Assembly (NCBI RefSeq): GCF_039542465.1
Contig: NZ_BAABIE010000001.1
Span: 372,306 to 396,305, forward strand
Direction of reading: 5' to 3'
Source: Gordonia alkaliphila
GTDB lineage: Bacteria; Actinomycetota; Actinomycetes; Mycobacteriales; Mycobacteriaceae
DNA length: 24,000 nt
The first letter of the stretch is position 1, and the number at the start of each line of letters is the position of its first letter. A program made the position numbers and the translations under genes. Shown piece after piece: positions 6,249-21,533 of the stretch. The notes under the pieces were generated by a model that was not told the origin of the DNA, ran no database searches, and worked only from the letters and a program-made list of their open reading frames with translations.

Positions 6249-6356
6249 CGTGAAACCCACATCCTCGCTCGCTACGGCCCGGACGCACGGAGTGCGCATC
6301 CGTATTTTCAAGCCTCACCACTATTCTGTCGTACCGCCCACCCGGATGCACGGCGG

Positions 6357-6780: not shown

Positions 6781-8592
6781 TCAGAACGGCGGTTCGCCGA
6801 TCGCCCGTTTCGCCTCGTAGTCGTCCCAGGCCGCGGCTTCTTCGGCGGCCTGCCGTCGTGCCTGGCCGACGGCGCGTTGTTCGTAGTTGGCCTTCCGCTC
6901 GGCCCGCCGCCGCGCATGCTTGGCCGCCGTGCGCGTCTGCGATCGTTCCGGAGCCTGGTCGACGGTGCTCGCCGCGGATCCCGTCGCGGACTGCTGCGCG
7001 AGCTGGTGACGACACCGCAGATCGGCCAGTTGCGGGAACAGCCACTGGTTGGGCGCAAGCAACTCGACGGTGATGCCGCCCGGCGTCGTCACGCTGGCGT
7101 GGTACCGCCCGTCGTCGTCGATCCAGAGGTCGTCGAGGAAGCCGGTCAGATGGGTTTTCATCAGATGATGGAAGCGACACTTCGGCAATAGATTGCAAAT
7201 GCACGTGGGTCCGCCGTTGCTCGGGCAGATGTTGTCGAACTCGGCGACATGGTCCAGATCGCACGCGAAAGCCGCGCGCTCGCAGCCGGGGATGGAACAG
7301 GTGCCCCAGAGGAAGCGTGCGACGAGGTCGGTGAGCAGGTTCGGCCGGTAGGGGTCGCTCGGCAGCGCGGTTTTCGCGATCAGGAAGCGCGGCGGGGAGA
7401 CGCCGTCGGCCGCTTGGGTGTCGGATCCGGCGTCGGATGCGCTTGCGGCCGCGCCGTTTTCGTCGATTTCCGGGTCGGGGCGTGGGTCATCGGCCCGGCA
7501 CTCGTCCGGGCTGTCGGGGCGGGGTCCTTTTCGGTGGACGGCCGCTTCGTCGAGGTCATTGTCGCTTTGTGCTTCGGGTTCGAGCAGATCGTTCAGGTCG
7601 TGCTGGTGGATCACCGAGTCGTCGCGCTCGGCGATCTGCCGGACGTGGTCGCCGGAGATCGGCCCGTAGCCGTCGAGGTAGCCGCACTGATCGCCACCGT
7701 CGAGGGTGGTGGCGTCGCAGAGGACGTGTACGACGATCCGCGCCGCCCGGGCATCGAGTTCCACGTCAGTGATCTGCGCAGTGCAGCCGTCGCTGTCGCA
7801 CTGACAGGTGAACGGGGTGCGCTGCAGGAGCGCGATGGCCGCGTCGGAGCGTGCCTGCGCCTTGGTCCGTGGATCTTCCGGGCAGAGGCCGGCGATGACG
7901 GCGTCGAGCAGCTGTCGGACCAGGCGCACGTCTTCGGCGGTGGCCGTGATGGAGATCTGCGCCATCCCGCCGTCCAGAGCCTGGAAACCCACGTTGCGCG
8001 ACGCCTTGGCCCGGTCGCGGTCGAGTTTCTCGGCGTCGGGGTCGTACTCGGCGACGAGTCGGCGGGCCATGTGGCCGGTTTTGGTGATGGACATCGACGA
8101 CACTCCGCCGCGCAGGCCCATGATCTGCAGTGCCAGGGTCTGGTCGATGAGGGCCATGGTCTCGTCGTCGCGGACCAGTTGGGTCTCAGCGACGATCCGA
8201 TGGAACCGGGCGCGGTCGATCAGCCCCAGCCGCATGGTGGAGAACACCGCCGGAAGGCGGTCGCGGGCGCACACGGCGTCGTCGAGCAACGAGCGTGCGA
8301 AGTGGTCGGTGCTGTCCAGACTCATCTGCAACTCCAGGGCAGTCTGGGCCTCCAGATCGAGGATCGACCGCTGCGTCACCGCGACGTTCTTACTGACCGC
8401 TTGGGCATGGTCGAACATCGACAGGGCGAACTGGAACAGCCGCCAGTCGAGGTAACAGTGGCCGTTCTTGATCGCGTGGACGGCCTCGGCGAGATCGCCG
8501 GTCGACAGCTCTGCGAGCGAAACACTGGACGAGGGCATGCCGACGGAAGCCAAGTCCGCCTTCGGCCAGGCGGAAGCGGCGAGCTTCGTCAT
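6781..8592 (-). CDS. DUF222 domain / HNH endonuclease protein (REP13E12-type family)
   Basis: 603-aa ORF with GGAGGTGAG just upstream of the ATG. The C-terminal HNH region reads CSIPGCERAAFACDLDHVAEF...LLPKCRFHHLMKTH. The long helical N-terminal domain is typical of mycobacterial 13E12-repeat proteins. An acidic low-complexity linker separates the two domains. Confidence 0.85.
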   Translation of the reverse strand: MTKLAASAWPKADLASVGMPSSSVSLAELSTGDLAEAVHAIKNGHCYLDWRLFQFALSMFDHAQAVSKNVAVTQRSILDLEAQTALELQMSLDSTDHFARSLLDDAVCARDRLPAVFSTMRLGLIDRARFHRIVAETQLVRDDETMALIDQTLALQIMGLRGGVSSMSITKTGHMARRLVAEYDPDAEKLDRDRAKASRNVGFQALDGGMAQISITATAEDVRLVRQLLDAVIAGLCPEDPRTKAQARSDAAIALLQRTPFTCQCDSDGCTAQITDVELDARAARIVVHVLCDATTLDGGDQCGYLDGYGPISGDHVRQIAERDDSVIHQHDLNDLLEPEAQSDNDLDEAAVHRKGPRPDSPDECRADDPRPDPEIDENGAAASASDAGSDTQAADGVSPPRFLIAKTALPSDPYRPNLLTDLVARFLWGTCSIPGCERAAFACDLDHVAEFDNICPSNGGPTCICNLLPKCRFHHLMKTHLTGFLDDLWIDDDGRYHASVTTPGGITVELLAPNQWLFPQLADLRCRHQLAQQSATGSAASTVDQAPERSQTRTAAKHARRRAERKANYEQRAVGQARRQAAEEAAAWDDYEAKRAIGEPPF

Positions 8593-8771: not shown

Positions 8772-10343
8772 TCAGGTCCAGCTGGGCAGCCAGAGCTGCA
8801 TGTTCCACAGGTCGTTGCTGATCGGCACGCCGGTGAGGATTGGCCAGTGGAAGGCGAAGTTGGTCACCACGAGTCCGACGTAGAGCGCCACCCCGAGGAC
8901 GGCGATCAGCCGCGTCGTCGACAATCGATCTCTTCCCGCACTGGAGAGGACGTCCCCGCAAACCAGCGCCAAGCCCATCACCAGGAACGGCGCCATCGCG
9001 GTGGCGTAGAAGAAGTACATCTGGCGGTCGATCGAGAAGAACCAGGGGAGGATGGCGGCGCCGTAGCCGACGAGGACGGCGGCGTAGCGCCAGTCCCGGC
9101 GGAAGATGGTGCGCCACAGCGCCCACACCAGCATGGGCAGGGCCAGCCACCACAGGGCGGGCGTGCCGATGAGCATCTGGGCGCGAATGCAGTCGCCGCC
9201 GCCGCACTGATCGGGGCCGTAGGAGATCGCGTAGAGCATGGGACGCAGCGCCATCGGCCACGTCCACGGCTTGGACTCCCACGGGTGGTGATTGCCCGCG
9301 GCGTTGGTGAGGCCGGAGTGGAACTCGAGGATCCCGGTCTCGTAATACCAGAACGAACGAATCGCGGCCGGCACCCACGAGAAGGTGCCGTCGACGCCCA
9401 CCTCGGTGCCGACCACGTAGCGGTACACCGAGGTCTCCGCGCGGAACCACACCGCGAAGAAGGCGAGGTACATCGTCACCGGCAGCACCGCCAGCGAGGC
9501 CCCCGACGGAACCAGATCGCGCGCCAGGACGCCCTTGTACGGCTTGCGCACGTGGTAGGCCTTGCGAGCGGCCAGGTCGAACCCGAGGGACATCAGGGTG
9601 AAGAAGACGACGAAGTACATGCCCGACCATTTGGTGCCGCAGGCCAGACCCAACATCACGCCGGCGGTGAAGCGGTACCAGCGGAAGCCCAGCCGGGGTC
9701 CGAGCGGGCTCAGGTGCATGCGGCCCTCGACGTAGGCGCGGTGCATGCGGGCGCGCATCTGGTCGCGGTCGGCGATGAGGGCGGCGAAGGCGAGCACCAC
9801 GAAGAGCGCCTGGAAGATGTCGAGCATGCCCATGCGGGACTGCACGAACAGCACGCCGTCGCAGATGGCGAAGATGCCGGCCAGCGCCCCGATCAACGTG
9901 GACCGCGACATCCGGCGCACGGTCAGATAGATCGCCAGGACGATGATGACGCCGGAGACGGCGGCGGTGAATCGCCAGCCCATCGGCCCGTAGCCGAACA
10001 TCGCCTCGCCGATCGCCAGCATCCATTTGCCGACGGGCGGGTGCACCACCAGGCCGTACGCGGGATTGTCCTCGATCCAGCCGCCGCCGGTCAGCGCCTG
10101 CCAGCCCTGCGGCACGTAATGCTTCTCGTCGAAGACGGGCGTGCCGTCGTCGGTCGGATGGGTGAGGTCCCAGAAGCGCGTCACGATCGCGATCAGGGTC
10201 AGCACGACGCCGACGATGAAGCCGCGTCGACGGTCGGTCGCGCCGAAGATCGGCTCGGGAATCTCCGGGCCGGGAGCGGTGCCGAGGTCCTCGGTGCGCG
10301 CGCGGGGTGCGACGGTGGCGCGATCGAGGACGGCTGGACTCAC
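8772..10343 (-). CDS. pmt: Dolichyl/polyprenyl-phosphate-mannose--protein O-mannosyltransferase (Rv1002c-like)
   Basis: 523-aa polytopic membrane protein with a GTG start. Contains FDEKHYVPQGW and HPPVGKW motifs typical of the GT39/PMT family. It is divergent from rsmI, as in M. tuberculosis. Confidence 0.9.
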   Translation of the reverse strand: MSPAVLDRATVAPRARTEDLGTAPGPEIPEPIFGATDRRRGFIVGVVLTLIAIVTRFWDLTHPTDDGTPVFDEKHYVPQGWQALTGGGWIEDNPAYGLVVHPPVGKWMLAIGEAMFGYGPMGWRFTAAVSGVIIVLAIYLTVRRMSRSTLIGALAGIFAICDGVLFVQSRMGMLDIFQALFVVLAFAALIADRDQMRARMHRAYVEGRMHLSPLGPRLGFRWYRFTAGVMLGLACGTKWSGMYFVVFFTLMSLGFDLAARKAYHVRKPYKGVLARDLVPSGASLAVLPVTMYLAFFAVWFRAETSVYRYVVGTEVGVDGTFSWVPAAIRSFWYYETGILEFHSGLTNAAGNHHPWESKPWTWPMALRPMLYAISYGPDQCGGGDCIRAQMLIGTPALWWLALPMLVWALWRTIFRRDWRYAAVLVGYGAAILPWFFSIDRQMYFFYATAMAPFLVMGLALVCGDVLSSAGRDRLSTTRLIAVLGVALYVGLVVTNFAFHWPILTGVPISNDLWNMQLWLPSWT

Positions 10344-10376: not shown

Positions 10377-11225
10377 GTGACTGGAGCACTCGTCTTAGCC
10401 GGTACGCCGATGGGACAGCCCGGCGACGCCTCCCCGCGACTGCGGGAGGCCTTGGCGTCCGCGGACATCGTGGCCGCCGAGGACACGCGGCGGGCCCGCG
10501 GCTTGGCGTCGTCGTTGGACGTGACGATCGGCGGAAAGCTGGTCAGCTACTACGACCACGTCGAAGCCCAGCGCGCGCCGCAATTGGTGGAGGCGATCGC
10601 CGACGGCGCCACCGTTCTGCTGATCACCGATGCGGGCATGCCGTCGGTGAGCGACCCCGGTTATCGACTCGTCGCCGCCTGCGCGGCCGCCGACCTGCGC
10701 GTGACCTGTCTGCCCGGCCCGTCCGCGGTGACCACCGCGCTGGCGCTGTCGGCGCTGCCTTCGGAGCGGTTCTGCTTCGACGGCTTCGCTCCGCGCAAGC
10801 CCGGCGCTCGCCACGACTGGCTGGCGTCGCTGCGCACCGAGCCGCGCACCGTGGTCTTCTTCGAATCACCGCACCGGCTGGCCCAGACCTTGGCCGACGC
10901 CGCGCAGGTGCTGGGCGACGACCGGTCGGCGGCGGTGTGCCGCGAACTGACCAAGACCTACGAAGAGGTCAAGCGCGGCGGTCTCGGCGAGCTGGCTCGG
11001 TGGGCCGCCGACGGCGTCAAGGGCGAGATCACGGTGGTCGTCGCCGGCGCTTCGGCGATCGACGACGAAGCGGACCTCGAGTCGGTGGTGGCCGCGGCCG
11101 AGAGGCTGGCCGACGCTGGCAGTCGTCTCAAGGATGCGTGCGAGCAGGCGGCGGCGGGGACGCCGTTCAGTCGCCGCGAGGTCTACGAAGCGGTACTGGC
11201 CGCCCGCCGCGCGGCCGACAACTGA
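10377..11225 (+). CDS. rsmI: 16S rRNA (cytidine1402-2'-O)-methyltransferase RsmI (Rv1003-like)
   Basis: 282-aa ORF with a GTG start after GAGGAAGG. Tetrapyrrole-methylase-fold motifs are present: LAGTPMGQPGD, AAEDTR, ITDAGMPSVSDPG, FFESPHR. Confidence 0.9.
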   Translation: MTGALVLAGTPMGQPGDASPRLREALASADIVAAEDTRRARGLASSLDVTIGGKLVSYYDHVEAQRAPQLVEAIADGATVLLITDAGMPSVSDPGYRLVAACAAADLRVTCLPGPSAVTTALALSALPSERFCFDGFAPRKPGARHDWLASLRTEPRTVVFFESPHRLAQTLADAAQVLGDDRSAAVCRELTKTYEEVKRGGLGELARWAADGVKGEITVVVAGASAIDDEADLESVVAAAERLADAGSRLKDACEQAAAGTPFSRREVYEAVLAARRAADN

Positions 11226-11271
11226 TCGCGCAGTCGTCGGCTCGACTTCCTCGGAACGGATGAAGCCGCGG

Positions 11272-12640
11272 CTAGCCTGGATCTTTCATCGGTGAATTCG
11301 AATCGCCAGGCCTAAAGCATGAAGAAAGGTGCTCTCACCTGCGATAATCGTTCTTGCGACAGCACGATTACGTCAGAGCGAAGGAGCACCTTTCTGGTGA
11401 ACAACTCTACCGTGTTCTATCCACACATCCACGCCACCGGCGACGGCGAGAACCTCGTGTCCCACGCCGGAACTGTCCTGTTGACCCGGACCGTCGAGGC
11501 CAGCAGCCTGGCAGCCGAGGTATCGACCGCACTGGCGCCGTGGCGCACACCGTTGGCGACGCATGATCCGGGCAAGATCATCGCCGACCTCGCCGTCGCG
11601 TTGGTCGCCGGCGGCGACTGTCTCGCCGACATCGCGACCATCCGCGAACGCCCCGATACCTTCGGCCACGTCGCCTCGGACCCGACGGTGTCCCGCCTGA
11701 TCTCCACCCTGGCCAAGTCGCCGATCCAGGCGCTGTCGGCGATCGCCGCCGCGCGAGCGGCGACCCGGGCACGCGTGTGGTCGCTGGCCGGCACCGCCGC
11801 GCCGAACCATGCCATCTCAGCGAAGAAGCCACTGGTCATCGACCTCGACGCGACCCTGGTCACCGCGCACTCCGACAAGCAATCGGCTGCAGGAAATTAC
11901 AAGGGAGGCTACGGATTCCATCCGATGACCGCGTTCATCGACCACGGGCCCGGCGGCGCCGGGGAAGCCGGAACGATCCTGCTACGGCCAGGCAATGCCC
12001 GTGGTCGTGCGGCGAGAGAAACCGCATCCGGGTGCGCAACTGCGGATCACCGACCGCAACGGGTGGCGGCTGACCGCATTCGCTACGAACACCAAGCTCG
12101 GGCAGCTCGCGGATCTGGAACTGCGGCATCGCCGCCGTGCGCGGTGCGAGGATCGGATCCGGCAGAGCAAGGATTGTGGCCTGCTGAATCTGCCGCTGTT
12201 CTCGTTCGCGCAGAACCAGGTATGGACTGCGATCGTCGCGCTGGCATTCGACCTGAACGCGTGGATGCAGATGCTGGCGTTGACCAGCACGAACGCCCGA
12301 ACCTGGGAGTTGAAGACATTGCGTCTGCGGTTGTTCGCGATCGCGGCCAGGATCGCTCGCCACGCCCGTCAACGACGCCTGCGGTTCGATGCCCACGCCA
12401 AGCACACCAGGCTGCTCATCGCTGGGCTTCATCGGCTCGACGCATTCACCAACACCAGCTGACCACCAGTTCCCGCTGGTATCCGAACGACCTGAAAGAC
12501 ACCCTCCGGGCCCGTGAAACCCGGCCGCGATCCGGCGGCATCCGGCCAGCCTGTCGTACCCGACCTGCATAATCTGCTCCGCCGCAATCAATCCGAACCG
12601 CTCAGGCCGGGAGAAAACCACGACGAAAGATTGAGGCTAG
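11272..12640 (+). mobile_element. IS1380-family insertion sequence, internally deleted
   Basis: Terminal inverted repeats CTAGCCTGGATCTTTCATCG (11272-11291) and the reverse complement of 12621-12640 (CTAGCCTCAATCTTTCGTCG) match at 17 of 20 positions. They enclose the split transposase. The element is about 1.37 kb, shorter than typical IS1380 members. Confidence 0.8.
11397..12462 (+). pseudogene. IS1380-family transposase, broken by an out-of-frame internal deletion near 11997-12003
   Basis: The N-terminal part runs from the GTG at 11397 (after AAGGAG): VNNSTVFYPHIHATGDGENLVSHAG...ILLRPGNA. The C-terminal part is in another frame (track ORF 11995..12462): PVVVRREKPHPGAQLRITD...LELRHRRRARCEDRIRQSKD. 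About 100+ central codons expected between GNA and the RREKPHPGAQL block are missing. Confidence 0.8.
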
Positions 12641-12858
12641 GAGAACGTGTGGCCTGAGAATATGGCGAAACTTCCCCGTCGCATTTGTCGAATCATCTCC
12701 GTGGGTGTCCAATATGCCTCGGGGGAAGAATCCTCCCACTATCGGCAACTCGAAGCCGAGACCACTCCACAGGGAGTATCGGCAGGGTTGGGGGAAGCGT
12801 TACATCGGGGGATTGTGGTCCTTCGGTGTCCGCATGGACTACAAGGGGGCTCGTCTCG

Positions 12859-13539
12859 ATGAGGCGTATCACCAGACTTCTACTGCTCACCGTTCTCGCT
12901 GCGTTCACGTTGGCGGGATCATTGCTCGCCGGACCGGCGGACGCGAAGACCCATCACACGCGTGAAGGCGTCGACATCACGCTGACCGCCTCGAAGCTCA
13001 AGGCGAAGAAGATTCCGGCACTGGACGCCTCGCCGCTGTCGGGCGAAGCGCTGCTGTCCTCGGACGTGCACGCAGCACTCAAGGGCATCGACGGCAAGAC
13101 CGTCCGTGCAACGGTCGAGGTCGGCTACAAGATCGGCTACCCGGTCTCGGTCGCGCCCTCGGGCGTGAATGTCGCCGCACACACGCCCGAGCTGAAGCTG
13201 ACCGGCGGCCTCAACGCCAAGGTCGCACCCGAGGTCACCATCTCCGGCAGCGGCGGCGGCGCCAAGCTCGGCGAGATCGGCGCAGAGCTCGGTGCCGAAG
13301 CGACCGTTATCCCGGCCGCGGACCTCGAGTTCGAGGTCGGCGCGGGCAAGATCACCACCGTCACACTCGCCGACATCGCGCTGACCCAGCCCGTCGCCGA
13401 CATCGTCCTGTCCGGTGTCGAGCTGAACGTGTCCAACGCTCTCGGACCGATCTCGGTGCGACCGTTCGCCAAGATTAGCGTCACGACTGATACCGGTGTG
13501 TACGTGTACTACGACCACGGCCCCAACAGCCGCATCTGA
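12859..13539 (+). CDS. MspA-family mycomembrane porin (copy 1), Sec signal peptide
   Basis: Track ORF 12685..13539, trimmed to the ATG at 12859 after AAGGGGG. Signal peptide MRRITRLLLLTVLAAFTLAGSLLAGPADA|K. Blocks TVEVGYKIGYPVSV, VAPEVTISGSGGG and ISVRPFAKISVTTDTGVYVYY align to M. smegmatis MspA blocks LELGYQIGFPWSL, PGVSISADLGNG and LLRPFARLIASTGDSVTTY. Confidence 0.75.
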   Translation: MRRITRLLLLTVLAAFTLAGSLLAGPADAKTHHTREGVDITLTASKLKAKKIPALDASPLSGEALLSSDVHAALKGIDGKTVRATVEVGYKIGYPVSVAPSGVNVAAHTPELKLTGGLNAKVAPEVTISGSGGGAKLGEIGAELGAEATVIPAADLEFEVGAGKITTVTLADIALTQPVADIVLSGVELNVSNALGPISVRPFAKISVTTDTGVYVYYDHGPNSRI

Positions 13540-13553
13540 GTAGGGGATCCGCG

Positions 13554-14714
13554 ATGTATGTACATTTCGATCGTGCTAGAAGAGAGCACGGACTACTAGT
13601 TGGTGCGCTCGCAGGAATCGCGACGATGACTGTCGCCTTCATACTTGTGCTTACGCTCGCCCCATCGCCGGCGTCGGCTGAAACACCTGCCCAACGTTGC
13701 AAACGGGAGACAGCGGCATATAACGCGGGGTGGGCGGCTATAGGAAGGAAGCCACCTGCTCCGTACAAATGTGGCGGCAGCAATAAACCGCCACCCACCC
13801 TATCTCCAGCCGAACCTGGCGACCATGGCGAAGAAACTGAGGAAAAATCGCCCCCTGAAAAGGGAACGCCAGACGGCGCCGACACCGGTCGTAGTGGAGG
13901 CCCAAGCCTCAAACCGCCCACCGAGCGCAACGACAATGCCAGCGGCGTCGACCCAAATCAGCCGAGCGTAGCACCTTCTCCCGGAATGAACCGGCCCGAA
14001 AGGCGAGAAGTTCAAGCGTGTACTCAATACCGTTTCGACACGGGGCGTTGTCTCCCCTTTAACTCTCCCGCCAAGCATGCTGCCGACCGGGTGATCGCTA
14101 CGATCACGCAAGCGATTCGCCAGGGCTACGAAATCCAGGTTCGGCGTTACATCGATCGTACAAGAGCTGTGTGGCCATCGTCCCGCCTTGCCGAGATTGA
14201 GGCCGCTGTCGTACGGGCAAGGGCCGCGCGTGACCTCGGTGTCACTGGCCAGTATGATGGATCGGTCAAAAGCCGCAATAGGTGGGTCTATGATCAGCTT
14301 CACGATGTTGGCTACTGCAACAACTCGGGGAATTGTAGTCTGGAGTTCAAGCTTCGAGTCAATTACGAAATCTACCTGAATGTTGCTACTAAGAAGCCGG
14401 AGGCGCTACTTCGCGGACAGATATCACGCCCAGACGGGGGACAGTTCCGCATCACGAATCATCAATGCGTGGTAATGAAAGACGACCTATTCGATAACGC
14501 GGTCGGGCGCTATAATGAGTGTGGAATCACGGAATACAAAACTTCTAGCTACCAAATACTCGACGGATCGTCGACCACTATGACGCGGGGGAAGTTTCAC
14601 TACTTCCAGGCGACTGTTTTTATCGCTGCGCCAGAGCAGGCAGTAGGGCCGCAACCGGCACCGCGATCACCTCGATGGTTCACCGCAGACAACGGTGATC
14701 AGTGGTTCTACTAG
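13554..14714 (+). CDS. Secreted polymorphic-toxin-like protein 1: conserved N-terminal module, Pro-rich linker, unique Cys-rich C-terminal domain of unknown fold
   Basis: 386-aa ORF starting 14 nt after the porin stop, with SD AGGGGA. Signal peptide ...LAPSPASA|ETPAQRCKRETAAYN. Residues about 43-135 are shared with the 20364 product (ETPAxRCKRETAAYN, PYxCGG, GPSLxPxTERNxxAxGVD). The C-terminal 250 aa or so are unrelated to the paralog and markedly lower in G+C. Confidence 0.7.
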   Translation: MYVHFDRARREHGLLVGALAGIATMTVAFILVLTLAPSPASAETPAQRCKRETAAYNAGWAAIGRKPPAPYKCGGSNKPPPTLSPAEPGDHGEETEEKSPPEKGTPDGADTGRSGGPSLKPPTERNDNASGVDPNQPSVAPSPGMNRPERREVQACTQYRFDTGRCLPFNSPAKHAADRVIATITQAIRQGYEIQVRRYIDRTRAVWPSSRLAEIEAAVVRARAARDLGVTGQYDGSVKSRNRWVYDQLHDVGYCNNSGNCSLEFKLRVNYEIYLNVATKKPEALLRGQISRPDGGQFRITNHQCVVMKDDLFDNAVGRYNECGITEYKTSSYQILDGSSTTMTRGKFHYFQATVFIAAPEQAVGPQPAPRSPRWFTADNGDQWFY

Positions 14715-14734
14715 ATTAACTAGGAGAGTTAACC

Positions 14735-15016
14735 GTGGGATTAGTGCCTAGCGATGATGAGCTACGGACGCTTGAGCGAAGGGGCCTTCTATCGGCGGTG
14801 CTCTTTTACGCCGAAAACTTCGGGGCGGTTAGCTCTACCGTTCTTGATGCAAGTAGCCGAGTCGAGGCGGTTGAGAAACTGAAGGAAATGTATGGCTTCA
14901 GCGTTGAACAGGCGGATCTAATTCTCGCCACGCAGTTGCAAACGATTCTTCCCGATCGGATCTCGGCAATCAGAGAGGAGCTGGAGTGGATTGATTTAAA
15001 TTTGAATCGACCGTAA
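14735..15016 (+). CDS. Small cytoplasmic protein, candidate cognate immunity/partner of toxin-like protein 1
   Basis: 93-aa ORF with a GTG start 8 nt after AGGAGAG and 20 nt after the upstream stop. It has no signal peptide and low G+C like the upstream C-terminal domain. It contains the helix motif FSVEQADLILATQLQTILPDRISAIREEL. Confidence 0.6.
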   Translation: MGLVPSDDELRTLERRGLLSAVLFYAENFGAVSSTVLDASSRVEAVEKLKEMYGFSVEQADLILATQLQTILPDRISAIREELEWIDLNLNRP

Positions 15017-15039
15017 ATGGAAATTCCACTATGTGTGGA

Positions 15040-15339
15040 TTCCGGCGGTGGGGCGCCAATGGTTGGTGCGGGGACCTCAACGAGCGGGGCATCGTGGTTC
15101 GGTTGCTGACCGAGGGCTGGGCTCGGGCACCTACACCGGACAGATGATGATCGGCATCCTGTTGCTGGTGGCCGAGTGCGAGGTGTCCCTCAAGGCTGAG
15201 CGTGCTGAGGCCAAGCGGGAGTTGATCCGCAAGCGGCGATTCGCCGGGCGCAGGTCAACGGCGAGACGGTGGCGGGGTTGGCCAGGGTCGCGGGGTATCG
15301 CGACCGACGATCTATCGGATGCTGGAGGGTCAGAAATGA
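15040..15339 (+). pseudogene. Serine recombinase (resolvase/invertase) C-terminal remnant with several frameshifts
   Basis: Resolvase-like pieces read across three frames. They are DLNERGIVVRLLTEG (from 15073), TGQMMIGILLLVAECEVSLKAER, PQAAIRRAQVNGETVAGLARVAG and VSRPTIYRMLEGQK* (stop 15337-15339). The N-terminal catalytic Ser region is absent. Confidence 0.6.
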
Positions 15340-15416
15340 ATGCATCGAATGCCCGCGATGGCCGACCAGATGGATGCGGTGGGGGTGAGTGATCCGTCCC
15401 GGTGTTTCCGGAGAGT

Positions 15417-15560
15417 TCACCTTGTGAGTGCCCCCTCCGGATTGGGGGTGGCAATCCGATCGTAGTGGAGTCGCTCGGCGTGGTCGGGGGTGAGGTCGTG
15501 GCAGTAGCTGGTCGTTGCCGGTTGTAGAACACGACCCACTCGGCGGTGGCCAGGGAAAGT
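15417..15560 (-). pseudogene. IS3/rve-type transposase C-terminal remnant, cut by the ISL3 insertion
   Basis: The minus strand reads LATAEWVVFYNRQRP. After a 1-nt frame change it continues SYCHDLTPDHAERLHYDRIATPNPEGALTR* (stop complement 15417-15419). This is typical of the end of an integrase-core transposase (W..YN..RPH..L...TP). It abuts the ISL3 inverted repeat at 15561. Confidence 0.5.
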
Positions 15561-17013
15561 GGCTCTTCGTTTTTCAGAGTGCGTTGACCCTTTCGGCGAG
15601 CTGACCGGAGTGCAGTAGGGACCGCAAGATGTAGTGGTCGAGGTTGCGGAAGCCTTGGGCGATGCCGCGGAGGTGTTCGAGGCGTCCGTTGATGGCTTCG
15701 ACGGGTCCGTTGGAGACGCCGGTGTCGAAGTAGGCCAGGATGTCGGCGCGCCTGTTCCACAGGCTTCGTCCGAGTTGGGCCAGCTCTTGCAGGCCTGTCG
15801 GCAGTCCGGTGCGGATCCGGTGCAGGACCTTGTACATGAGTTTCTTCCCCTCGCGGCGCTGCGGGTGTTCGTAGGCGGCGATCAGCTGCTGGTAGATCTG
15901 GTGGGTGATCTCGACAGCGACATGGTCGTCGTGACTGGTCAGTGACTCGAATAGGCGGATCTTCTGCTTGTCGGTGAGGAGTTCGGTGCGGGTATGCAGG
16001 ATCCGGCGGATCTTGTAGAGCGGGTCGTCTTTGCGCCCCCGGTGCCCGCATACTTGTTGCTGGATCCGTTGCCGGCACTGGTCGAGTTTGCTCGCGGCCA
16101 GGTGTACGACGTGGAACGGGTCCATCACGACCCGGGCGTCGGGGAGTTCTTCGGTGGTGGCGCTCTTGTAGCCGGTGAATCCGTCCATCGCCACGACCTT
16201 GATCCGATCCCGGAACCGTTGGTCTCGGGCGGCCATCCACTGTTTGAGGACGTGTTTGGATCGTCCGCCGATCATGTCGAGCAGGCGTGCGGGGCCGGTC
16301 CCGTCGATGACCGGGGTCAGATCGATCAGGACGGTGACGAAACTCGGGTCTCCTTGTCCGCGAACATGTTTCCATTTGTGTTCGTCCACGCCGAGGCAGC
16401 GGACACCGTCGAGGTGGTCGCCGTTGTAGACCAGGGTGCGAGCGGCCTCTGTGGCGATGGTATTGACCGTTCTCCAGGCGATGCCGAGGTTGGCAGCCAC
16501 GGCGGCCACGCTCATCTTGTCGACCACGATGCGCTGCAGAATCCAGCGCTGCGTCCTGGTCGTGACCACTGCTCGCGCCCTGGCGATGTGGTCGATCCTC
16601 GCGCGGAAGACCGACCTGGAGCAGTCGCTGGTGTGGCACACGTACCGCGGAACCGCCACGTGCAGGAGGACTGGATGGCCGGCGGCAGGAGTGTCGGTCA
16701 GGATCCGTGCGACCCGATCGCGTGGTTGACCTGCAATGTTGCAGTTCGGGCATCGTCGATCGGGGTCGAGGACCTCGCAGAAAAATATGGGTCCGGTCGT
16801 CGGCGCCGACGGCCGCGCCGGTGATCGTGACGCCCAACTCGACGGTTCGGCAGATCGTGTCGGCAACATCGGAAGTAAGCTCAGTCATGGGTCCTGTGGT
16901 GTGCGTCGAGGGTGTGTAGGAACTTCCATGATCACACCCAGGGCCCGCCTACATGTTGTGGTCGCCCACGCTCGTCCCGAACCTCACCTATGCACTCTCA
17001 GATACGAAGAGAT
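15561..17013 (-). mobile_element. ISL3-family insertion sequence, copy 1 (full length)
   Basis: The end at 15561 starts GGCTCTTCGTTTTTCAGAGTGCG. The reverse complement of 16991-17013 reads ATCTCTTCGTATCTGAGAGTGCA, matching 17 of 21 in the core. The right boundary is approximate (17011-17013). No target duplication was seen. Confidence 0.8.
15574..16888 (-). pseudogene. ISL3-family transposase, split by a 1-nt frameshift in an A5/T5 run (16781-16785)
   Basis: The N-terminus MTELTSDVADTICRTVELGVTITGAAVGADDRTHIF (ATG at 16888) continues in another frame as CEVLDPDRRCPNCN...VPRYVCHTSDCSRSVF. The remainder is the 431-aa track ORF 15574..16869 (MDGFTGYKSA..., FDTGVSNGPVEAINGRLEHLRG). Confidence 0.8.
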
Positions 17014-17231
17014 TCCCTAACAGTTGTCAACACCATTGTGAACCGGGACTTGACCTCGCAGCCCTCGGTGCGCCAGTCGACGCCCGAGCCGGCGTGGACC
17101 TGCTCGGCGGTGAGGTCACCCGCGTCGACGGCGTCGACCCAGATACCGACGAGACGGCCGTTCGAGTGACAGGACTCGCAAGATGCCCAGGCCCTGGGGA
17201 CGTTCACGGATGCTGGGTTCGTAGGAGTCAT
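16998..17231 (-). pseudogene. ArdA-like antirestriction protein, N-terminal fragment truncated by ISL3
   Basis: From the Met at 17231: MTPTNPASVNVPRAWASCESCHSNGRLVGIWVDAVDAGDL. This follows the ArdA N-terminal pattern (Tn916 ArdA ..VYIANLGKYNEGELVGAWF..). The last 5 codons or so and the stop come from the ISL3 end. Confidence 0.35.
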
Positions 17232-17398
17232 GGTTGGTCCTGTCTTTCCACCGCAGGGCTGCCGTCTGTCGTTGGGGCCAGGGTTCAGCGACGCAGCGTC
17301 CATCGGTTCTCGCCACGAGCGCTTCGGAGGAGTCTCTGCCGGCGGCGGTGCCGCCGGTGCTCAAAGTGGCGATTGCCCGCTTGCGTAGGGTTCTGGCC

Positions 17399-18127
17399 AT
17401 GGACGAAGGGCTGTGGCGCGAGCACCTGAAGGCGTACCGGAGACGAATGCTGTGGGCCCCTCTGGGCCTGAGCGCGTTGGGCTGTGCCTTCATCGCCGTC
17501 TCGGCCTACGACACCGACTGGGAGTTCAGCTTCCTCGGATTCGCGACCGGCGCGCTCCTCCTGGTAGTCGCGCTCACCCCGGTGACGGTCCGACTGCTCC
17601 CCATCGGCCAGCCAAGGGTCGAGAGGACCGAGACAACGCTGTCGCTCGTAGCCTCTCCACGAGGCCGTGTCGCGATTATCACAATTCCGATCGCGGTGGC
17701 GATGGCCGTCGCCGCCTTCGCGGCACTGACGCTGGACCACTGGCGGAAGCCGTTGATCGGGATCGTCGGGATACCGCTGGCCATCGTTCTGGCACTCGTC
17801 TCATTCGCGGAGTCGCGGTATGAGGTAACCGACAGGTGCTTCGCCCATGTCGTCGACTACGGCGGGCTGGTGTGGGTCCGCGAAGTAGATCGACCAACGA
17901 TTGCCTGGCTCGATTCCCGTTTGATCCTCTACCTGGCAGGCGATGTCACGGTGACCCGCCGCACTCGCGGCAGCAGCACCAGCCGGTCGAAGGAAGGCAG
18001 CGTCCTGTTCAGACTCAGCCCCCTGCCCGATCGGTTGGCCACCGAGTTCGCCGCCGAGGTCGTGCGGCGAACCGGCATCGAGATCAGCTACGGCGTGATG
18101 CCGACCGAGATGTGGGATATGCGATAG
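17399..18127 (+). CDS. Membrane protein of unknown function (about 4 TM helices plus a soluble C-terminal domain)
   Basis: Track ORF 17234..18127, trimmed to MDEGLWREHL at 17399. Coding-like GC3 and hydrophobic segments. No family recognised. Confidence 0.55.
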   Translation: MDEGLWREHLKAYRRRMLWAPLGLSALGCAFIAVSAYDTDWEFSFLGFATGALLLVVALTPVTVRLLPIGQPRVERTETTLSLVASPRGRVAIITIPIAVAMAVAAFAALTLDHWRKPLIGIVGIPLAIVLALVSFAESRYEVTDRCFAHVVDYGGLVWVREVDRPTIAWLDSRLILYLAGDVTVTRRTRGSSTSRSKEGSVLFRLSPLPDRLATEFAAEVVRRTGIEISYGVMPTEMWDMR

Positions 18128-18135
18128 AGCCCAGG

Positions 18136-18270
18136 TTAGACTTCGTCTGAGACGGTGACGCCTACCAGGCGAGCACACCTCGATGGCACCGAACCAGATC
18201 CCGAGGAGACGGCTGTTGCGGGCTGAGGCGCTCGCAGGCTATCGCAAGCGTTCACGGTGATGGTTGTCAT
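18136..18270 (-). pseudogene. Second decayed ArdA-like 5' segment (also readable as a 44-aa ORF)
   Basis: Positions 18179-18218 align with 17124-17163 at 31 of 40 nt by hand alignment. In the alternative frame this segment encodes NSRLLGIWFGAIE, compared with NGRLVGIWVDAVD in the 17231 fragment. An in-frame stop lies upstream in that frame. The 44-aa ORF with ATG at 18270 follows AAAGGA. Confidence 0.3.
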
Positions 18271-18280
18271 GGCGGTCCTT

Positions 18281-18661
18281 TCAGACGGGAAGCAGGTCAG
18301 CGATGCGGTCAATGTCGATGACGCTCTCGGGATCGGGATCGCTGGGCCCCAGGAAGCGCTGCTCGACGTCGAGGCCAAGCAATCCCCGGCCGGCAGCGAA
18401 AGAGACTTCCTGGTCAAGTCCGAGGTTGCGGCCGTAGGCCGGATCGAGGCCGAGAATCGTGTACAAAGCTCGTGCTGCGCCGAAGACGGGATCGGCGCAG
18501 ATGGTGATCTCCGCCCAGCCGGCCCAGCGCTCGAAGCCGTACTTATCGCCGCCGCACGGGCCGGGAACATAGACAACTCGGTCGGCGCCCTCGGCGCGAG
18601 CAGCCTCGGCCGCGTCGATGCGCCAGATGACTGGCCAATGGCGTTGGAATATCTCGGCCAT
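18281..18661 (-). CDS. Hypothetical protein (126 aa)
   Basis: Track ORF 18281..18784, trimmed to MAEIFQRHWPV at 18661. It starts 11 nt after the upstream stop and has GC3-rich codons. No recognisable domain. Confidence 0.5.
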   Translation of the reverse strand: MAEIFQRHWPVIWRIDAAEAARAEGADRVVYVPGPCGGDKYGFERWAGWAEITICADPVFGAARALYTILGLDPAYGRNLGLDQEVSFAAGRGLLGLDVEQRFLGPSDPDPESVIDIDRIADLLPV

Positions 18662-18672
18662 CTCGGTTATTC

Positions 18673-19038
18673 TCACGGCAGCGCCTCCAATAGCGGCTCG
18701 ACGGCGAGAACCTCGCCGGTAGTCAGTCGGTGCTCCTCGATCGCCGCTTCGATCTGGCAAGGATTGGCCAGGTGCGACCAGCACCGCGGACCGGCCACGC
18801 CGTCGGTGAGGACGATGCGGGTTCCGTCGGTCAGGTCGATGCCGACCATCGACAGGGCCGCTCGGGCAGCGTCCTGGGCCATGCCGGGCGAGTACAGATA
18901 ATCCGGGTCAGCCGGGGCCAGGTCGTGGACCCGATTGTACCGGCGGGCGACGTCGGCACGGTCCAGAGTTCTGGCCCGGTCCGGGACGAGGCCGCGGTGG
19001 ACCAGACGTGCGACCCAAGGGTCGGTGATGGCGGTCAT
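18673..19038 (-). CDS. Hypothetical protein (121 aa)
   Basis: Track ORF with ATG preceded by GAGG, 4 nt after the upstream stop. No recognisable domain. Confidence 0.5.
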   Translation of the reverse strand: MTAITDPWVARLVHRGLVPDRARTLDRADVARRYNRVHDLAPADPDYLYSPGMAQDAARAALSMVGIDLTDGTRIVLTDGVAGPRCWSHLANPCQIEAAIEEHRLTTGEVLAVEPLLEALP

Positions 19039-19042
19039 CGCC

Positions 19043-19300
19043 TCAGCCCTCCGCGTTCGCGGTCAGGCCGACGAGGTGCGGGTATTCGGCTGGCGCGGTG
19101 AGGATCTCGACCTCGTAGATTGCATGAACCTCTGCGTACTGCGGGCCCTCGCCGGTTAACGGGATGAGGGCGCCCTGTGCCCAGTCATCGAGGTCGTGAG
19201 TGGGTGGTGGCGACACCTCGACACCGATGGTGTGGGTGAACACAGCGCCGGTGGCGTAGGAGTTCTCGGTGCGGATGGTGAGCGGGATGGTTGCCGGCAA
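19043..19300 (-). CDS. Hypothetical protein (85 aa), first gene of the small operon
   Basis: Track ORF 19043..19420, trimmed to the in-frame TTG at 19300, 6 nt downstream of a strong AAGGAGG. The upstream part of the track ORF is Arg/Pro-rich and non-coding-like. Confidence 0.45.
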   Translation of the reverse strand: MPATIPLTIRTENSYATGAVFTHTIGVEVSPPPTHDLDDWAQGALIPLTGEGPQYAEVHAIYEVEILTAPAEYPHLVGLTANAEG

Positions 19301-19521
19301 TCTGGGCCTCCTTGATCGAGTCGAGGAAGGTTTGGCGGCGGCTATGCCGCCGGTGCTTCTTGTCTGTGTTCGAGGTCGCGCCGACCTACAAACCCAGCCG
19401 CGAACCCGGGCCCCTGGCACCAGAAGGCGGGCCGCGAGCGCAGCACCGAACCCATGTCAGGCAAGCACCTACCGGACCCGCACAGCGAATCCGAGTCTCG
19501 GCATTTCCCAAGGTCACCACT

Positions 19522-19544: not shown

Positions 19545-19667
19545 GTATTTCTTGCTTCTACCTGCAAGTTCGCAAATGCTCTCCAGTACTGGCTGGCCAA
19601 CCGGTTTTAGCGTTCTCGCGGGCTCTCAGTCGGGGGCTCACACACGAACACAACGAAACTCGGAGTG

Positions 19668-20348
19668 ATGATGAGACGAGGTTTCACCCTTCTGCTCGCC
19701 CTGTTGGGCGCGCTATCGATGACCACACTGCTGGCCGGCGGTCCCGCGGAGGCCAAGACGTACAAGACCCGCGAAGGGTTAACGATCGCCCTGACCGCGG
19801 CCCAGCAGTCGGCGCGCGCGGTCCCGCCGCTGGACTCCTCGCCGCTGTCGGGGCAAGCGCTGTTGTCCTCAAATGTGCACGCCAGGATCGGGAACATCGA
19901 CAACAAGATCGTGCGCGCCACGCTCGAGGTCGGCTACAAGATCGGCTATGCGGTATCGGTCGCTCCCGACGGAGTGAAGGTCACCGCCCACACCCCCGAG
20001 TTGAAGCTCACCGGCGGGGTCAACGCCAAGGTCGCCCCGGAAGTCACCATCTCCGGTTCAGGAGGCGGCGCGAAGCTCGGCGACCTCGGAGCCCAAGCGG
20101 GCGTGGAAGCGAATGTGATTCCGTCAGCGGACCTGGAGTTCGAGGTCGGGGCCGGCAAGATCACCACCGTCACCCTGGCCGAGATCGCGTTGACCCAGCC
20201 CGTAGCCGACATCGTCCTGTCCGACGTGGAGCTCAATGCTACCAACGCGCTCGGCCCGATCAGCGTGCGTCCATTCGCTAAAATCTCGGTCACCACCGAT
20301 ACCGGCGTGTACGTGTACTACGCCCACGGCCAGACCAGCCGTCTGTAG
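19668..20348 (+). CDS. MspA-family mycomembrane porin (copy 2), Sec signal peptide
   Basis: The track ORF starts at GTG 19665, with ATGs at 19668 and 19671 after GGAG. Signal peptide ...LLAGGPAEA|K. It is colinear and highly similar to the 12859 product, including TLEVGYKIGYAVSV, VAPEVTISGSGGGAKLG and ISVRPFAKISVTTDTGVYVYY. Confidence 0.75.
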   Translation: MMRRGFTLLLALLGALSMTTLLAGGPAEAKTYKTREGLTIALTAAQQSARAVPPLDSSPLSGQALLSSNVHARIGNIDNKIVRATLEVGYKIGYAVSVAPDGVKVTAHTPELKLTGGVNAKVAPEVTISGSGGGAKLGDLGAQAGVEANVIPSADLEFEVGAGKITTVTLAEIALTQPVADIVLSDVELNATNALGPISVRPFAKISVTTDTGVYVYYAHGQTSRL

Positions 20349-20363
20349 GCGGGGGCTTCACGG

Positions 20364-21533
20364 ATGATAGACAGGAAGATCGATAACAACCGACCGGCGC
20401 GGAAGCGGGCATCCAGCGGGATGGGCGCAAGCGTTGCCGCCCTCGCTGTATCCCTCGTGATGGCGTCATCGCTGCTGTCGGCAAATGCGTCGGCCGAAAC
20501 GCCGGCGGAGCGTTGCAAGAGGGAGACTGCCGCGTACAACTCCGCATGGGCGACGTCTTGGGTGAGAGCTCATCCCGGAACGAAACCGGCTGATGCACCG
20601 CCTCCGCCGGTGCCCTACAGGTGCGGCGGGGGCGGCGGGGGCGGCGGCCAGCCTCCCACGTTTAGCCCGGACGAGCCAGCGCCCCCGAGCTCGACGGCAA
20701 CACCGCCCCCTTCTACCTCCGCTGAGCCGGCAGACGGCAGCAGTGGGCCTTCGCTCCACCCGTCGACAGAGCGCAACGAGCCAGCCAACGGTGTCGACCA
20801 GGACCAGAGTCCTGTCGGGGGCGGGGAAAGAGAAGAGTATCCAGATATTCCCGACGACGAACTCCGGAAGCTGATCAACATATCGGTAAGGAACTTCAAT
20901 ACCTCAATCAGGAAGCTACGTAGCGATCTTCAGACGTTCGCCCGCCAGATGTCCCTTCCCTACTCTGAGGTCCTCTCCAGTGCCGAGCGGAATGCTTTTG
21001 ACGCCGTACAGGTAAGTAATCCCAGCGCCGATTCGACGTGTGGGAAACCTGCGAACCAACCAGTCGGTCAAGCTAGAGGAGAAGGTGACTTCTTCTACTC
21101 GGACTCCTGCTTGGGAGGCTACAACCATGGCCACAATGGGATATTCACCTCCCCGTCAGCTACTATGGAAGCGAGCGACGATCAAGGGGTCCACGACGTT
21201 GAAAACGCGGCCGCTTCCATGCGAGTGAATCCGCAAAAGTACTATGTCAAGTCTGAGAACGCGACGAACCACCAGAAGCACCTAGCGGCAGAATACGCTC
21301 TATCTAAAGACGGTAAGGGGTACAATTCGGCGGGCTTCGCGAACAACAGGAAGGGTGGCCCCGATGTGGGGCATTTCAACTGTTCCCAGTTGGTGTGGGC
21401 AGCCTACTATGAGACTTCGAGAATCGACCTCGATAAGGACTCATATGGATCATGGCTCGGCCGGAACGTGTCCCCCAATCCCGGGGTGTATCCGAAGGAC
21501 CTCACCGGGTCTCCGCTAGTTGTGGCGTACTGA
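20364..21533 (+). CDS. Secreted polymorphic-toxin-like protein 2: conserved N-terminal module, Pro/Gly-rich linker, C-terminal YiiX/YaeF (peptidase C92) permuted papain-like amidase domain
   Basis: 389-aa ORF starting 15 nt after the porin stop. Signal peptide ...SANASA|ETPAERCKRETAAYN. C-terminal motifs GDFFYSD, HGHNGIF and GHFNCSQLVWAAYYE compare with E. coli YiiX GDIIF, YSHTGML and QYCSEVVWKVY. His precedes Cys, which is the circularly permuted order. Confidence 0.7.
   Translation: MIDRKIDNNRPARKRASSGMGASVAALAVSLVMASSLLSANASAETPAERCKRETAAYNSAWATSWVRAHPGTKPADAPPPPVPYRCGGGGGGGGQPPTFSPDEPAPPSSTATPPPSTSAEPADGSSGPSLHPSTERNEPANGVDQDQSPVGGGEREEYPDIPDDELRKLINISVRNFNTSIRKLRSDLQTFARQMSLPYSEVLSSAERNAFDAVQVSNPSADSTCGKPANQPVGQARGEGDFFYSDSCLGGYNHGHNGIFTSPSATMEASDDQGVHDVENAAASMRVNPQKYYVKSENATNHQKHLAAEYALSKDGKGYNSAGFANNRKGGPDVGHFNCSQLVWAAYYETSRIDLDKDSYGSWLGRNVSPNPGVYPKDLTGSPLVVAY

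Follow-up and report, generated by a model that had tools for sequence, protein, structure and literature searches.

A Gordonia-centred polymorphic toxin family with a conserved N-terminal module and MspA-family pore genes upstream

A 24,000-nucleotide (nt) stretch of the Gordonia alkaliphila genome (NCBI RefSeq assembly GCF_039542465.1, contig NZ_BAABIE010000001.1, positions 372,306 to 396,305 of the forward strand; hereafter "the window", whose positions are counted from its first letter) contains two open reading frames (ORFs), ORF-A (13554-14714, 386 amino acids (aa)) and ORF-B (20364-21533, 389 aa), whose products belong to a polymorphic toxin family that had not been described before and that occurs in mycolic-acid bacteria, with Gordonia at its centre. 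Each of the two ORFs is preceded by a gene of the MspA pore family and followed by a candidate immunity gene, and the reading we favour, to which we would assign a probability of roughly 60%, is that the family represents MspA pore-coupled, Sec-dependent polymorphic toxins, laid out in the order pore, toxin, immunity, for which the pore would serve as a route or an anchor across the mycomembrane. What is known here is the polymorphic toxin system as such; what is new is the trafficking module and the type of the pore partner.

The constant module and its junction with the variable tails

A previous sequence-only reading of the window had claimed that the two products are alike in their N-terminal parts only, and this is borne out by BLASTP, which aligns residues 17-139 of ORF-A with residues 19-151 of ORF-B at 41% identity (E 2e-18) and finds nothing significant beyond residues 139/151. 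The elements it had listed, namely ASA^ETPA(Q/E)RCKRETAAYN..W (the caret marking the predicted cleavage site), PY(K/R)CGG, PPT(L/F)SP.EP and GPSL.P.TERN..A.GVD..Q, do keep the same order in both ORFs, and the breakpoints it had placed at about 13952 and about 20798 agree with the end of the last DNA patch common to both loci (13908-13953/20754-20799), 3' of which no DNA similarity between loci A and B was found; the patches before it are 12927-13532/19736-20341, at 78% identity, and 13671-13736/20487-20552. The accompanying claim of a G+C fall at the junction stands for locus B (0.68 in the module and 0.55 in the tail; 0.74 and 0.64, respectively, at third codon positions (GC3)) and fails for locus A, where the fall already occurs at the boundary between the upstream MspA-family gene, MspA-A, and ORF-A (GC3 is 0.84 for MspA-A, as against 0.52 for the module and 0.59 for the tail). 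The parts of the two products, with disorder judged from the AlphaFold2 (AF2) predicted local distance difference test (pLDDT), are:

13554-13679, + strand: predicted signal peptide of ORF-A, as read from the sequence (residues 1-42, ...PSPASA^ETPA)
13680-13778, + strand: head of the constant module of ORF-A (residues 43-75, ETPAQRCKRETAAYNAGWAAIGRKPPAPYKCGG), short form, Cys49-Cys73 spacing of 24
13779-13898, + strand: Pro/Glu/Gly-rich disordered linker of ORF-A (residues 76-115; AF2 pLDDT <50)
13899-13970, + strand: junction motif of ORF-A (residues 116-139, GPSLKPPTERNDNASGVDPNQPSV), at which the family-wide homology stops
13971-14714, + strand: variable C-terminal domain of ORF-A (residues 140-386), an orphan presumed toxin with six Cys
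20364-20495, + strand: predicted signal peptide of ORF-B (residues 1-44, ...SANASA^ETPA), from the sequence and its alignment with ORF-A and homologues
20496-20630, + strand: head of the constant module of ORF-B (residues 45-89), long form with a 12-residue insertion, Cys51-Cys87 spacing of 36
20631-20744, + strand: Gly/Pro/Ser/Thr-rich linker of ORF-B (residues 90-127; AF2 pLDDT <50)
20745-20816, + strand: junction motif of ORF-B (residues 128-151, GPSLHPSTERNEPANGVDQDQSPV); DNA homology with locus A stops at 20799
20817-21533, + strand: variable C-terminal domain of ORF-B (residues 152-389), a probable permuted papain-like amidase

Both N-termini are predicted to be Sec-type signal peptides, that of ORF-A showing a basic n-region, a hydrophobic core of about 20 residues and an AxA site (the AF2 model has a helix at residues 6-35), and the AxA cleavage motif is kept family-wide. 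Tat export and lipoprotein anchoring of the toxins were both considered and rejected, the former because an RR pair is no regular feature of the n-regions, and the latter because the site is ASA^E, with no lipobox. The AF2 model of ORF-A, for which a 34-sequence alignment of the module was used, places a helix at residues 45-63 with a pLDDT of about 90, remains confident up to about residue 75 and depicts disorder from about residue 80 to 160; besides the helices of the signal peptide and the head, a single helical hairpin is all that it shows with confidence. Invariant or near-invariant positions of the ORF-A head within the family are E43, T44, P45, A46, R48, C49, R51, E52, T53, Y56, N57, W60, P67, P70, Y71 and C73, while in the junction G116, P117, P122 and T123 are near-invariant in the 34-sequence alignment, and only P117 is so across all 78 family proteins.

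A word-indexed search yielded eight relatives only, with matches confined to the first quarter to third of the query (25-33% coverage); two of them have names and are called hypothetical proteins from Gordonia. A profile of the module, searched against 1.84 billion protein representatives, on the other hand, retrieved 74 representatives at E<=1e-3 (36 at E<=1e-10), all of them from Mycobacteriales, with Gordonia predominating, and all having the module at the N-terminus (residues ~25-150) of proteins of 100-815 aa. Scanning of genomes gave 24 loci, 23 from Gordonia and one from Nocardia, with up to four per genome (four in Gordonia sp. MP11Mi, four in G. malaquae and two in the present window), and ten more distant representatives that were looked up add Rhodococcus qingshengii, Lawsonella clevelandensis and a Mycobacteriaceae metagenome-assembled genome (MAG); where those ten are named at all, the name is "hypothetical protein", except for the Lawsonella member, which is named an amidase-domain protein. 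Neither ORF-A nor ORF-B has a relative in the plasmid and phage collections, and nothing thus points to the family being plasmid- or phage-borne. A full-text literature search combining MspA/porin, Gordonia, mycomembrane and toxin found no description of an MspA-toxin linkage, and the treatment of polymorphic toxin systems by Zhang et al. (2012) makes no mention of MspA.

Among the 78 proteins that made up the set used for the Pfam and conservation analyses, the near-invariant part of the module reads E-T-P-A-x-R-C-x-R-E-T-x-x-Y-N-x-x-W, followed by P-P-x-P-Y-x-C, and no Pfam family covers it in any of them, just as the ORF-A head has no NCBIfam match and the N-terminal module no match in the PDB. 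The two Cys that had been proposed to be conserved are indeed so, the second being invariant and the first present in at least 90% of the 78 sequences, and, given this invariance and the confidently modelled helix, they presumably form a disulfide within the head. Two discrete spacings between them are seen, one of 24 and one of 35-38 residues, and the window has an example of each. The linker from the second Cys to the junction is 28-45 aa long (median 36, interquartile range 32-37) and consists of Pro and Thr by 45%; it seems to be free in sequence and constrained in length. The junction falls into a first class, GP..N.PT.R......G..P[I/V], which includes PTERRELEHP..GQ.PI and the TERN..A.GVD..Q.P.V of the window, and a second one, GPN.GAHAPTDIP..G.TPI, and the ends of alignments between 1080 pairs of proteins with different tails have their mode exactly at the P[I/V] closing the motif.

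Whether the junction is also where tails get exchanged, as would be the case for the VENN motif to which it had been likened, is a different matter: the family-wide homology does end there, but the clearest recent tract ends about 40 codons earlier. The tract in question is shared by two loci of Gordonia sp. MP11Mi (L011 and L013), which are 90-100% identical from about 260 nt upstream of MspA through the head, with an identity of about 100% up to toxin residue ~84 (the head/linker boundary) and of about 60% after it; a similar recombination profile is seen for the G. malaquae and G. spumicola loci. With the recent tract stopping short of the linker, VENN as a swap point makes an approximate analogy only, the junction motif was rejected as the recombination point on the strength of this within-genome profile, and, judging from the sequences compared, it is not the sole, or even the usual, recent crossover point, which argues that the motif is conserved by function and not by recent shared ancestry.

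MspA-family genes upstream of the toxin genes

The first genes of both loci and the spacer that separates the first of them from its toxin gene are:

12859-13539, + strand: MspA-A pore gene (signal peptide and MspA domain), first gene of locus A (PF09203, E 1.7e-28)
13540-13553, + strand: spacer of 14 nt between MspA-A and ORF-A, with a GGGGA ribosome-binding-like site
19665-20348, + strand: MspA-B pore gene, first gene of locus B (PF09203, E 6.3e-30)

With scores of 100.1 and 104.8 bits on PF09203, against a gathering cut-off of 22.9, MspA-A and MspA-B (78% identical to one another) are members of the family, whereas the 34.7 and 28.8 bits obtained with the NCBIfam MspA equivalog NF053716, which has a cut-off of 280, fall far short of orthology to the M. 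smegmatis MspA. MspA-A can be aligned to the MspA structure 1UUN at E 1.6e-4; where the latter has its D90/D91 eyelet, MspA-A has a segment that is longer and rich in Gly. The pore-toxin spacers of both window loci are 14-15 nt long and have a G-rich ribosome-binding site, and since no terminator-like site was found on the + strand between the pore and toxin genes, the 14-nt spacer included, this is read as an operon junction.

An MspA-like gene as the conserved upstream neighbour had been predicted by the sequence-only reading, and a family MspA hidden Markov model, built from 11 upstream MspA-like ORFs and run on the six-frame ORFs of all loci, does place an MspA-family gene directly upstream, on the same strand, in approximately 85-90% of the scorable loci. 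In 24 distinct loci this gene is intact and stops ~110-220 nt short of the AETPA motif; it is degraded in three (L007, L009 and L026), two of which also have a broken toxin gene; visible by its 3' end alone at a contig edge in four (L006, L012, L018 and L019); and absent from four (L022, L025, L028 and L032/33). Contig starts that break inside the MspA 3' end were seen in the draft assemblies of G. shandongensis and G. malaquae, which suggests that the MspA-plus-head repeat collapses short-read assemblies, and copy numbers taken from drafts are, therefore, probably underestimates.

The linkage spans Gordonia, Nocardia, Lawsonella and the Mycobacteriaceae MAG, and is kept in a second Gordonia lineage, in Lawsonella and in the MAG, where MspA is only 26-37% identical to that of the window. 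Identities of MspA and of the head are correlated (Mantel r 0.57, a value reached by 19 of 5000 permutations), and the window's MspA-A shares 94% identity with MspA genes that accompany short-form heads in other genomes, versus 78% with its own paralogue. Where the class of MspA changes, that of the junction changes as well. The Lawsonella clevelandensis loci have an extra 83-aa gene between the MspA and toxin genes (L034 4757-5008; L035 1341-1592) and a longer MspA homologue of 297 aa with large insertions. A linkage to ESX-4 was considered and rejected: a single locus, L001, adjoins an EccC-like gene encoding a 1238-aa double FtsK/SpoIIIE ATPase, together with rplM/rpsI (10836-17290 of that locus), and as no other locus does so, this neighbourhood, which presumably recalls the ESX-4 region of mycobacteria, was treated as a coincidence.

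Variable tails, candidate immunity genes and the surroundings of the loci

The diversity of C-terminal domains to be expected of polymorphic toxins is there, as 26 scorable loci fall into 16 C-terminal clusters and Pfam reports 13 different families among the 78 proteins, most of which have no match at all. Matches to the tails include Ntox21 (E 2.3e-22), PT-HINT (3.7e-12), PLA2_3 (3.2e-11) and Amidase_6 (3.9e-25), as well as DUF6973 (two members), M10/matrixin and other zincins, NlpC/P60, C92 and LGFP, and recognised toxin families are thus found on the C-termini of the family taken as a whole; Ntox21 is the toxin (CdiA-CT) domain of the Enterobacter cloacae CdiA (PMC3482391). One further family tail looks HNH-like by eye, without Pfam support. 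The commonest tail class (P0003, P0004, P0007, P0015, P0048, P0052, P0070 and P0075) has no Pfam family and is made up of C.EG.H...CY.DYDY and a subsequent Ser/Thr-rich amphipathic hairpin; its weak but consistent profile matches to aerolysin-like pore formers (E 0.002-0.1), among them 7y78, 8bad and the C. perfringens enterotoxin, suggest that these tails are probably aerolysin-like beta-pore formers.

As regards the two tails of the window, that of ORF-A (residues 137-386) has no homologue among 5.8 billion proteins and no Pfam match; the helical hairpin at residues 172-227 is the sole part of it that AF2 models confidently, and a Foldseek search of the ORF-A model against the PDB gave nothing below E 0.015, that is, no meaningful fold match. 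ORF-B has four full-length relatives, and C249, H255, H257 and C340 of its tail are invariant among the three that were aligned with it, within a motif of the type NHGHNG...NCSQ(L/V)VWAA in which H255/H257 precede C340. PF05708 matches three of the four proteins of this type that were scanned, below its gathering score (27 bits), with a best E of 1.8e-4 and 0.018 for ORF-B itself; the AF2 model, based on four sequences, has a pLDDT of 37, and the family profile has no match in the PDB. The order of the conserved residues and these matches point to the ORF-B tail being probably a permuted papain-like amidase (NlpC/P60 superfamily, C92-like), perhaps one acting on the cell envelope.

Each toxin gene of the window is followed by a candidate immunity gene:

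14735-15016, + strand: ORF of 93 aa, cytoplasmic, candidate immunity gene for ORF-A, starting 20 nt past the ORF-A stop
21533-22810, + strand: gene of a 425-aa lipoprotein (lipobox-like ...VTVSC), candidate periplasmic immunity gene for ORF-B

The case is better developed for the latter, the ATG of which overlaps the ORF-B stop by 1 nt (it starts on the last base of the stop codon). A homologous lipoprotein gene comes next in all four of the other loci of the ORF-B toxin type that reach past the toxin gene (62% identity to the window lipoprotein in L029/L030 and 30% in L031; L023 also has a homologue), and homologues follow no toxin type other than this one, so that for the ORF-B type the downstream gene co-varies with the toxin, as is typical of polymorphic toxin systems. 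The lipoprotein has no Pfam match; a periplasmic immunity protein would fit a tail that is predicted to be an envelope-acting amidase. The 93-aa ORF shares the tail-like G+C content, has no signal peptide, is 100% identical to a G. alkaliphila hypothetical protein and, as the sole candidate, may be the immunity protein for ORF-A, the single example of its toxin type. A weak similarity of this ORF to the GyrA/ParC coiled-coil region was noticed (NCBIfam E 0.003-0.015; its UniRef name is DNA topoisomerase fragment), and that it might, if an immunity protein, mimic a gyrase target is pure speculation. All-against-all comparison groups the downstream ORFs by toxin type, with ORFs being common only within a type. 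In L011 there are ORFs homologous to those found behind the toxin genes of L013 and of L019/L020, and the Lawsonella toxin gene is followed by four small overlapping genes; both sets, going by their gene content, look like poly-immunity arrays.

Turnover of the loci as units, and the mobile elements around them, can be followed at these positions:

11319-12572, + strand: DDE transposase (DDE_Tnp_1_4; PF13701, E 5.7e-36), directly upstream of locus A
12889-14670, no strand assigned: segment of 1.78 kb absent from four assemblies (L038-L041), a presence/absence polymorphism of MspA-A plus ORF-A
15574-16869, - strand: ISL3-family transposase (PF01610, E 5.1e-57), downstream of locus A
22892-23538, - strand: partial second ISL3 copy, downstream of locus B (206-aa ORF at 22905-23525)

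The four assemblies, which are independent of one another (two ENA metagenomes and two Logan runs), join window position 12888 to 14670/14671 with an identical junction sequence in all four (ctactgctc^ctcgatgg, the caret here marking the join) and with flanks that are 97-100% identical to the window. The deletion takes MspA-A from codon 11 on and ORF-A except for its last 15 codons, and leaves the 93-aa ORF intact, from which it follows that pore and toxin were lost or gained as a unit while the candidate immunity gene stays. The 5.8-billion-protein database likewise has the 93-aa protein (from G. alkaliphila) and is missing ORF-A. Insertion sequence (IS) elements bracket both toxin loci, the partial ISL3 copy sharing 94% identity with the 3' portion of the full element after locus A (~15561-16210, on its locus-A side) and having the same orientation relative to the toxin locus.

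A protein O-mannosyltransferase gene (8772-10343, - strand; PMT, PMT_2 and PMT_4TMC domains) and a TP_methylase (tetrapyrrole-methylase-family) gene (10377-11225, + strand) lie 2.5 kb upstream of locus A and form a pair that we take to resemble Rv1002c-Rv1003 (Pmt/RsmI) of M. tuberculosis; it is plausible that the Pro/Thr-rich toxin linkers are Pmt substrates, and the adjacency of the PMT gene to locus A is probably coincidental. Further upstream are a 603-aa DUF222 protein (6781-8592, - strand; E 7.6e-27), presumably of the 13E12 repeat family that is usually fused to HNH, for which the scan reported no HNH domain, and a tandem-domain universal stress protein (5373-6311, - strand), the two Usp domains of which account for a 77-nt direct repeat (5433-5509/5874-5950, 75% identity). 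The region between the ISL3 element and locus B (17234-19400) has ORFs of 297 aa (a weak MerC-like match, E 0.0014) and 214 aa, neither of which could be assigned to a family, and a strong terminator-like hairpin is present upstream of locus B (19332-19353).

Proposed pore-coupled export, its rivals and related systems

On the favoured reading, the locus would be a three-gene unit of an MspA-family pore, a toxin and the cognate immunity protein, in that order. The toxin would leave the cytoplasm by Sec, its signal peptide being cleaved at ASA^E, and would then use the co-encoded MspA-like pore to cross, or be shown on, the mycomembrane. The head (~30-45 residues), an amphipathic helix presumably pinned to the PPxPYxC strand by a disulfide formed after export, might, once oxidised, remain periplasmic as a stopper or docking element, while the ~36-residue Pro/Thr-rich linker would span the ~10-nm channel of MspA, and the ~22-residue junction, together with the toxin domain, would emerge outside for delivery to competitors. 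At about 0.3 nm per residue such a linker reaches ~11 nm, MspA being 9.6 nm long (structure 1UUN), which makes its length compatible with pore threading. Since the junction class changes with the MspA class, the junction could be a pore-specific or a processing element. Domains past it would be swappable, be it an RNase (Ntox21), HINT-processed toxins, phospholipase A2, amidases, metalloproteases or probable beta-pore formers, with the ORF-B tail probably acting as an envelope amidase neutralised by the periplasmic lipoprotein. We infer export through, or tethering in, the pore; the broader proposition that MspA pores, which have so far been known as solute channels only, double as dedicated translocons or anchors for Sec-exported polymorphic toxins, and evolved to do so independently of two-partner secretion (TPS), is put forward tentatively, as one that we would sooner doubt than endorse.

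Several observations weigh against pore-coupled export. Threading is topologically awkward, as Sec runs from N to C and the tail would need to enter the ~1-nm eyelet unfolded, unless it is around the linker that the pore assembles. The linkage is non-reciprocal (among four distinct Gordonia-type MspA loci found in metagenomes, two are followed by a module gene and two are not), and Rhodococcus-type members (L028 and L032/33) lack an MspA gene in their vicinity. Comparison of the two Gordonia lineages gives ~60-65% identity for the head and 26% for the linked MspA, and a head that is better conserved than MspA argues for its binding something other than MspA, while the Mantel correlation could merely reflect the joint inheritance of neighbouring genes. 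Neither tail of the window, moreover, has a confident toxin assignment, ORF-A being an orphan and the matches of ORF-B all being sub-threshold.

On a rival explanation the family is one of polymorphic toxins, with an MspA linkage that is purely genetic: the toxin genes would share a strong porin promoter, with the mycomembrane being crossed otherwise or after lysis, the MspA 3' end, signal peptide and head would be a homology anchor for cassette exchange, and the head would be a generic envelope anchor or folding element. The within-genome identity tracts, which begin ~260 nt upstream of MspA and extend as far as the head/linker boundary, do look like a recombination anchor, and MspA genes lacking a module gene, module genes lacking MspA and the higher conservation of the head speak for it, too. 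What makes us regard it as unlikely, all the same, is that the linkage persists at 26-37% MspA identity across four genera, which would be hard to maintain without selection for co-function, that the linker is under a constraint of length and the class of the junction goes with that of MspA, and that MspA and toxin tend to decay together (the toxin gene is broken in two of the three loci whose MspA is degraded) and are co-deleted. Two of these features, a linker length that fits the MspA channel and the co-varying junction, could also be expected if the toxins were imported, colicin-like, through the MspA of the target cell, with the linked allele marking susceptible neighbours (kin recognition), a role that would be compatible with one in export; a long disordered linker beside a small folded head resembles colicin translocation domains as well. 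The receptor gene of a colicin is, however, unlinked to the toxin gene, the present toxins have Sec signal peptides and no lysis gene, and the types acting in the cytoplasm (Ntox21, and the one HNH-like by eye) would need an inner-membrane step for which no element is visible, so that import of this kind strikes us as quite improbable. Least credible of all, to the point that we would be surprised if it were true, is that these are exported envelope-remodelling or nutrient-scavenging enzymes associating with porins, and that the downstream genes are accessory ones and not immunity genes: several tails are hydrolases able to act on the bacterium's own envelope (amidases, NlpC/P60-like domains, LGFP repeats and metalloproteases) and the partner of ORF-B is a large lipoprotein, but Ntox21 and PT-HINT are specific to polymorphic toxins (and one tail is HNH-like by eye), the C-termini show extreme turnover and low G+C, small downstream genes that vary with the toxin type overlap the stop of the toxin gene, and the loci are multi-copy, IS-flanked and variably present.

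Of the known systems, CdiB-CdiA-CdiI of contact-dependent growth inhibition (CDI) is similar in its gene order (an outer-membrane pore, a toxin with a constant N-terminal and a variable C-terminal part, and immunity), in the short conserved motif that ends the constant part, in the multiple loci and orphan-immunity-like arrays, and in that at least one family member here carries the E. cloacae CdiA toxin domain, Ntox21. The pore here, however, is of the MspA family (PF09203) and not an Omp85/TpsB barrel, Pfam finds no TPS domain or FHA repeat in the 78 members, the junction sequences contain no VENN, the proteins are 100-815 aa long versus ~3000 aa, the membrane concerned is a mycomembrane, and the recent tract ends before the linker; by analogy, then, the family may be regarded as a functional mycomembrane counterpart of CdiB-CdiA-CdiI. 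Rhs/YD-repeat toxins differ in that the family sequences have no RHS Pfam match and no PxxxxDPxGL motif. MafA-MafB-MafI of Neisseria, in which MafB has a signal peptide, an N-terminal DUF1020 and a variable tail and which occurs as several islands per genome, is similar in having the gene of an envelope protein directly upstream, an immunity gene downstream and a toxin with a family-specific N-terminal domain; there is, however, no sequence relation (neither DUF1020 nor any other Pfam family covers the module), the partner is an MspA pore homologue here versus a lipoprotein adhesin there, and lineage and envelope differ. Nuclease colicins, e.g., colicin E9, thread a disordered N-terminal domain through OmpF, and thus share a disordered N-terminal segment of defined length and the use of a general-diffusion porin, although in their case the porin belongs to the target and is unlinked, release depends on lysis proteins and not on Sec, and there is no sequence similarity.

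Sec-type polymorphic toxins as such have been listed before (PMC3482391). CpnT/TNT of Mycobacterium tuberculosis, which is paired with the immunity factor IFT (Tak et al. 2021, as cited in PMC10868439), is likewise an outer-membrane-associated toxin with a C-terminal toxic domain and an N-terminal part that involves a channel, but in CpnT the N-terminal domain forms the channel itself and export depends on ESX systems, whereas here a Sec signal and a separate MspA-family gene are seen, and CpnT is not polymorphic in the cassette sense. WXG100 polymorphic toxins of M. abscessus prophages use type VII secretion and have variable C-termini (PMC8092301). These WXG100/LXG toxins are, as the present ones, polymorphic toxin-immunity cassettes with variable C-termini in Mycobacteriales; they have a WXG100 helical domain and ESAT-6-like partners and no signal peptide, whereas the Gordonia family has none of the former and a Sec signal instead.

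Known export of mycobacterial toxins, that is, of CpnT and the WXG100 toxins, runs through ESX systems. The compact and repeated three-gene unit described here pairs a pore of known architecture with a substrate that has a simple conserved handle, which makes the question of how Sec-exported proteins cross the mycolic-acid outer membrane directly testable, and the MspA-translocon reading, if true, would constitute the first genetically defined mycomembrane route for a Sec substrate and, as such, a finding of major importance. Should the module indeed dock in MspA, a natural peptide ligand or thread would be at hand for the pore used in nanopore sequencing. The family is, furthermore, a store of unannotated toxin domains and matching immunity genes in Gordonia, Nocardia, Rhodococcus and Lawsonella, the last of these being a skin commensal.

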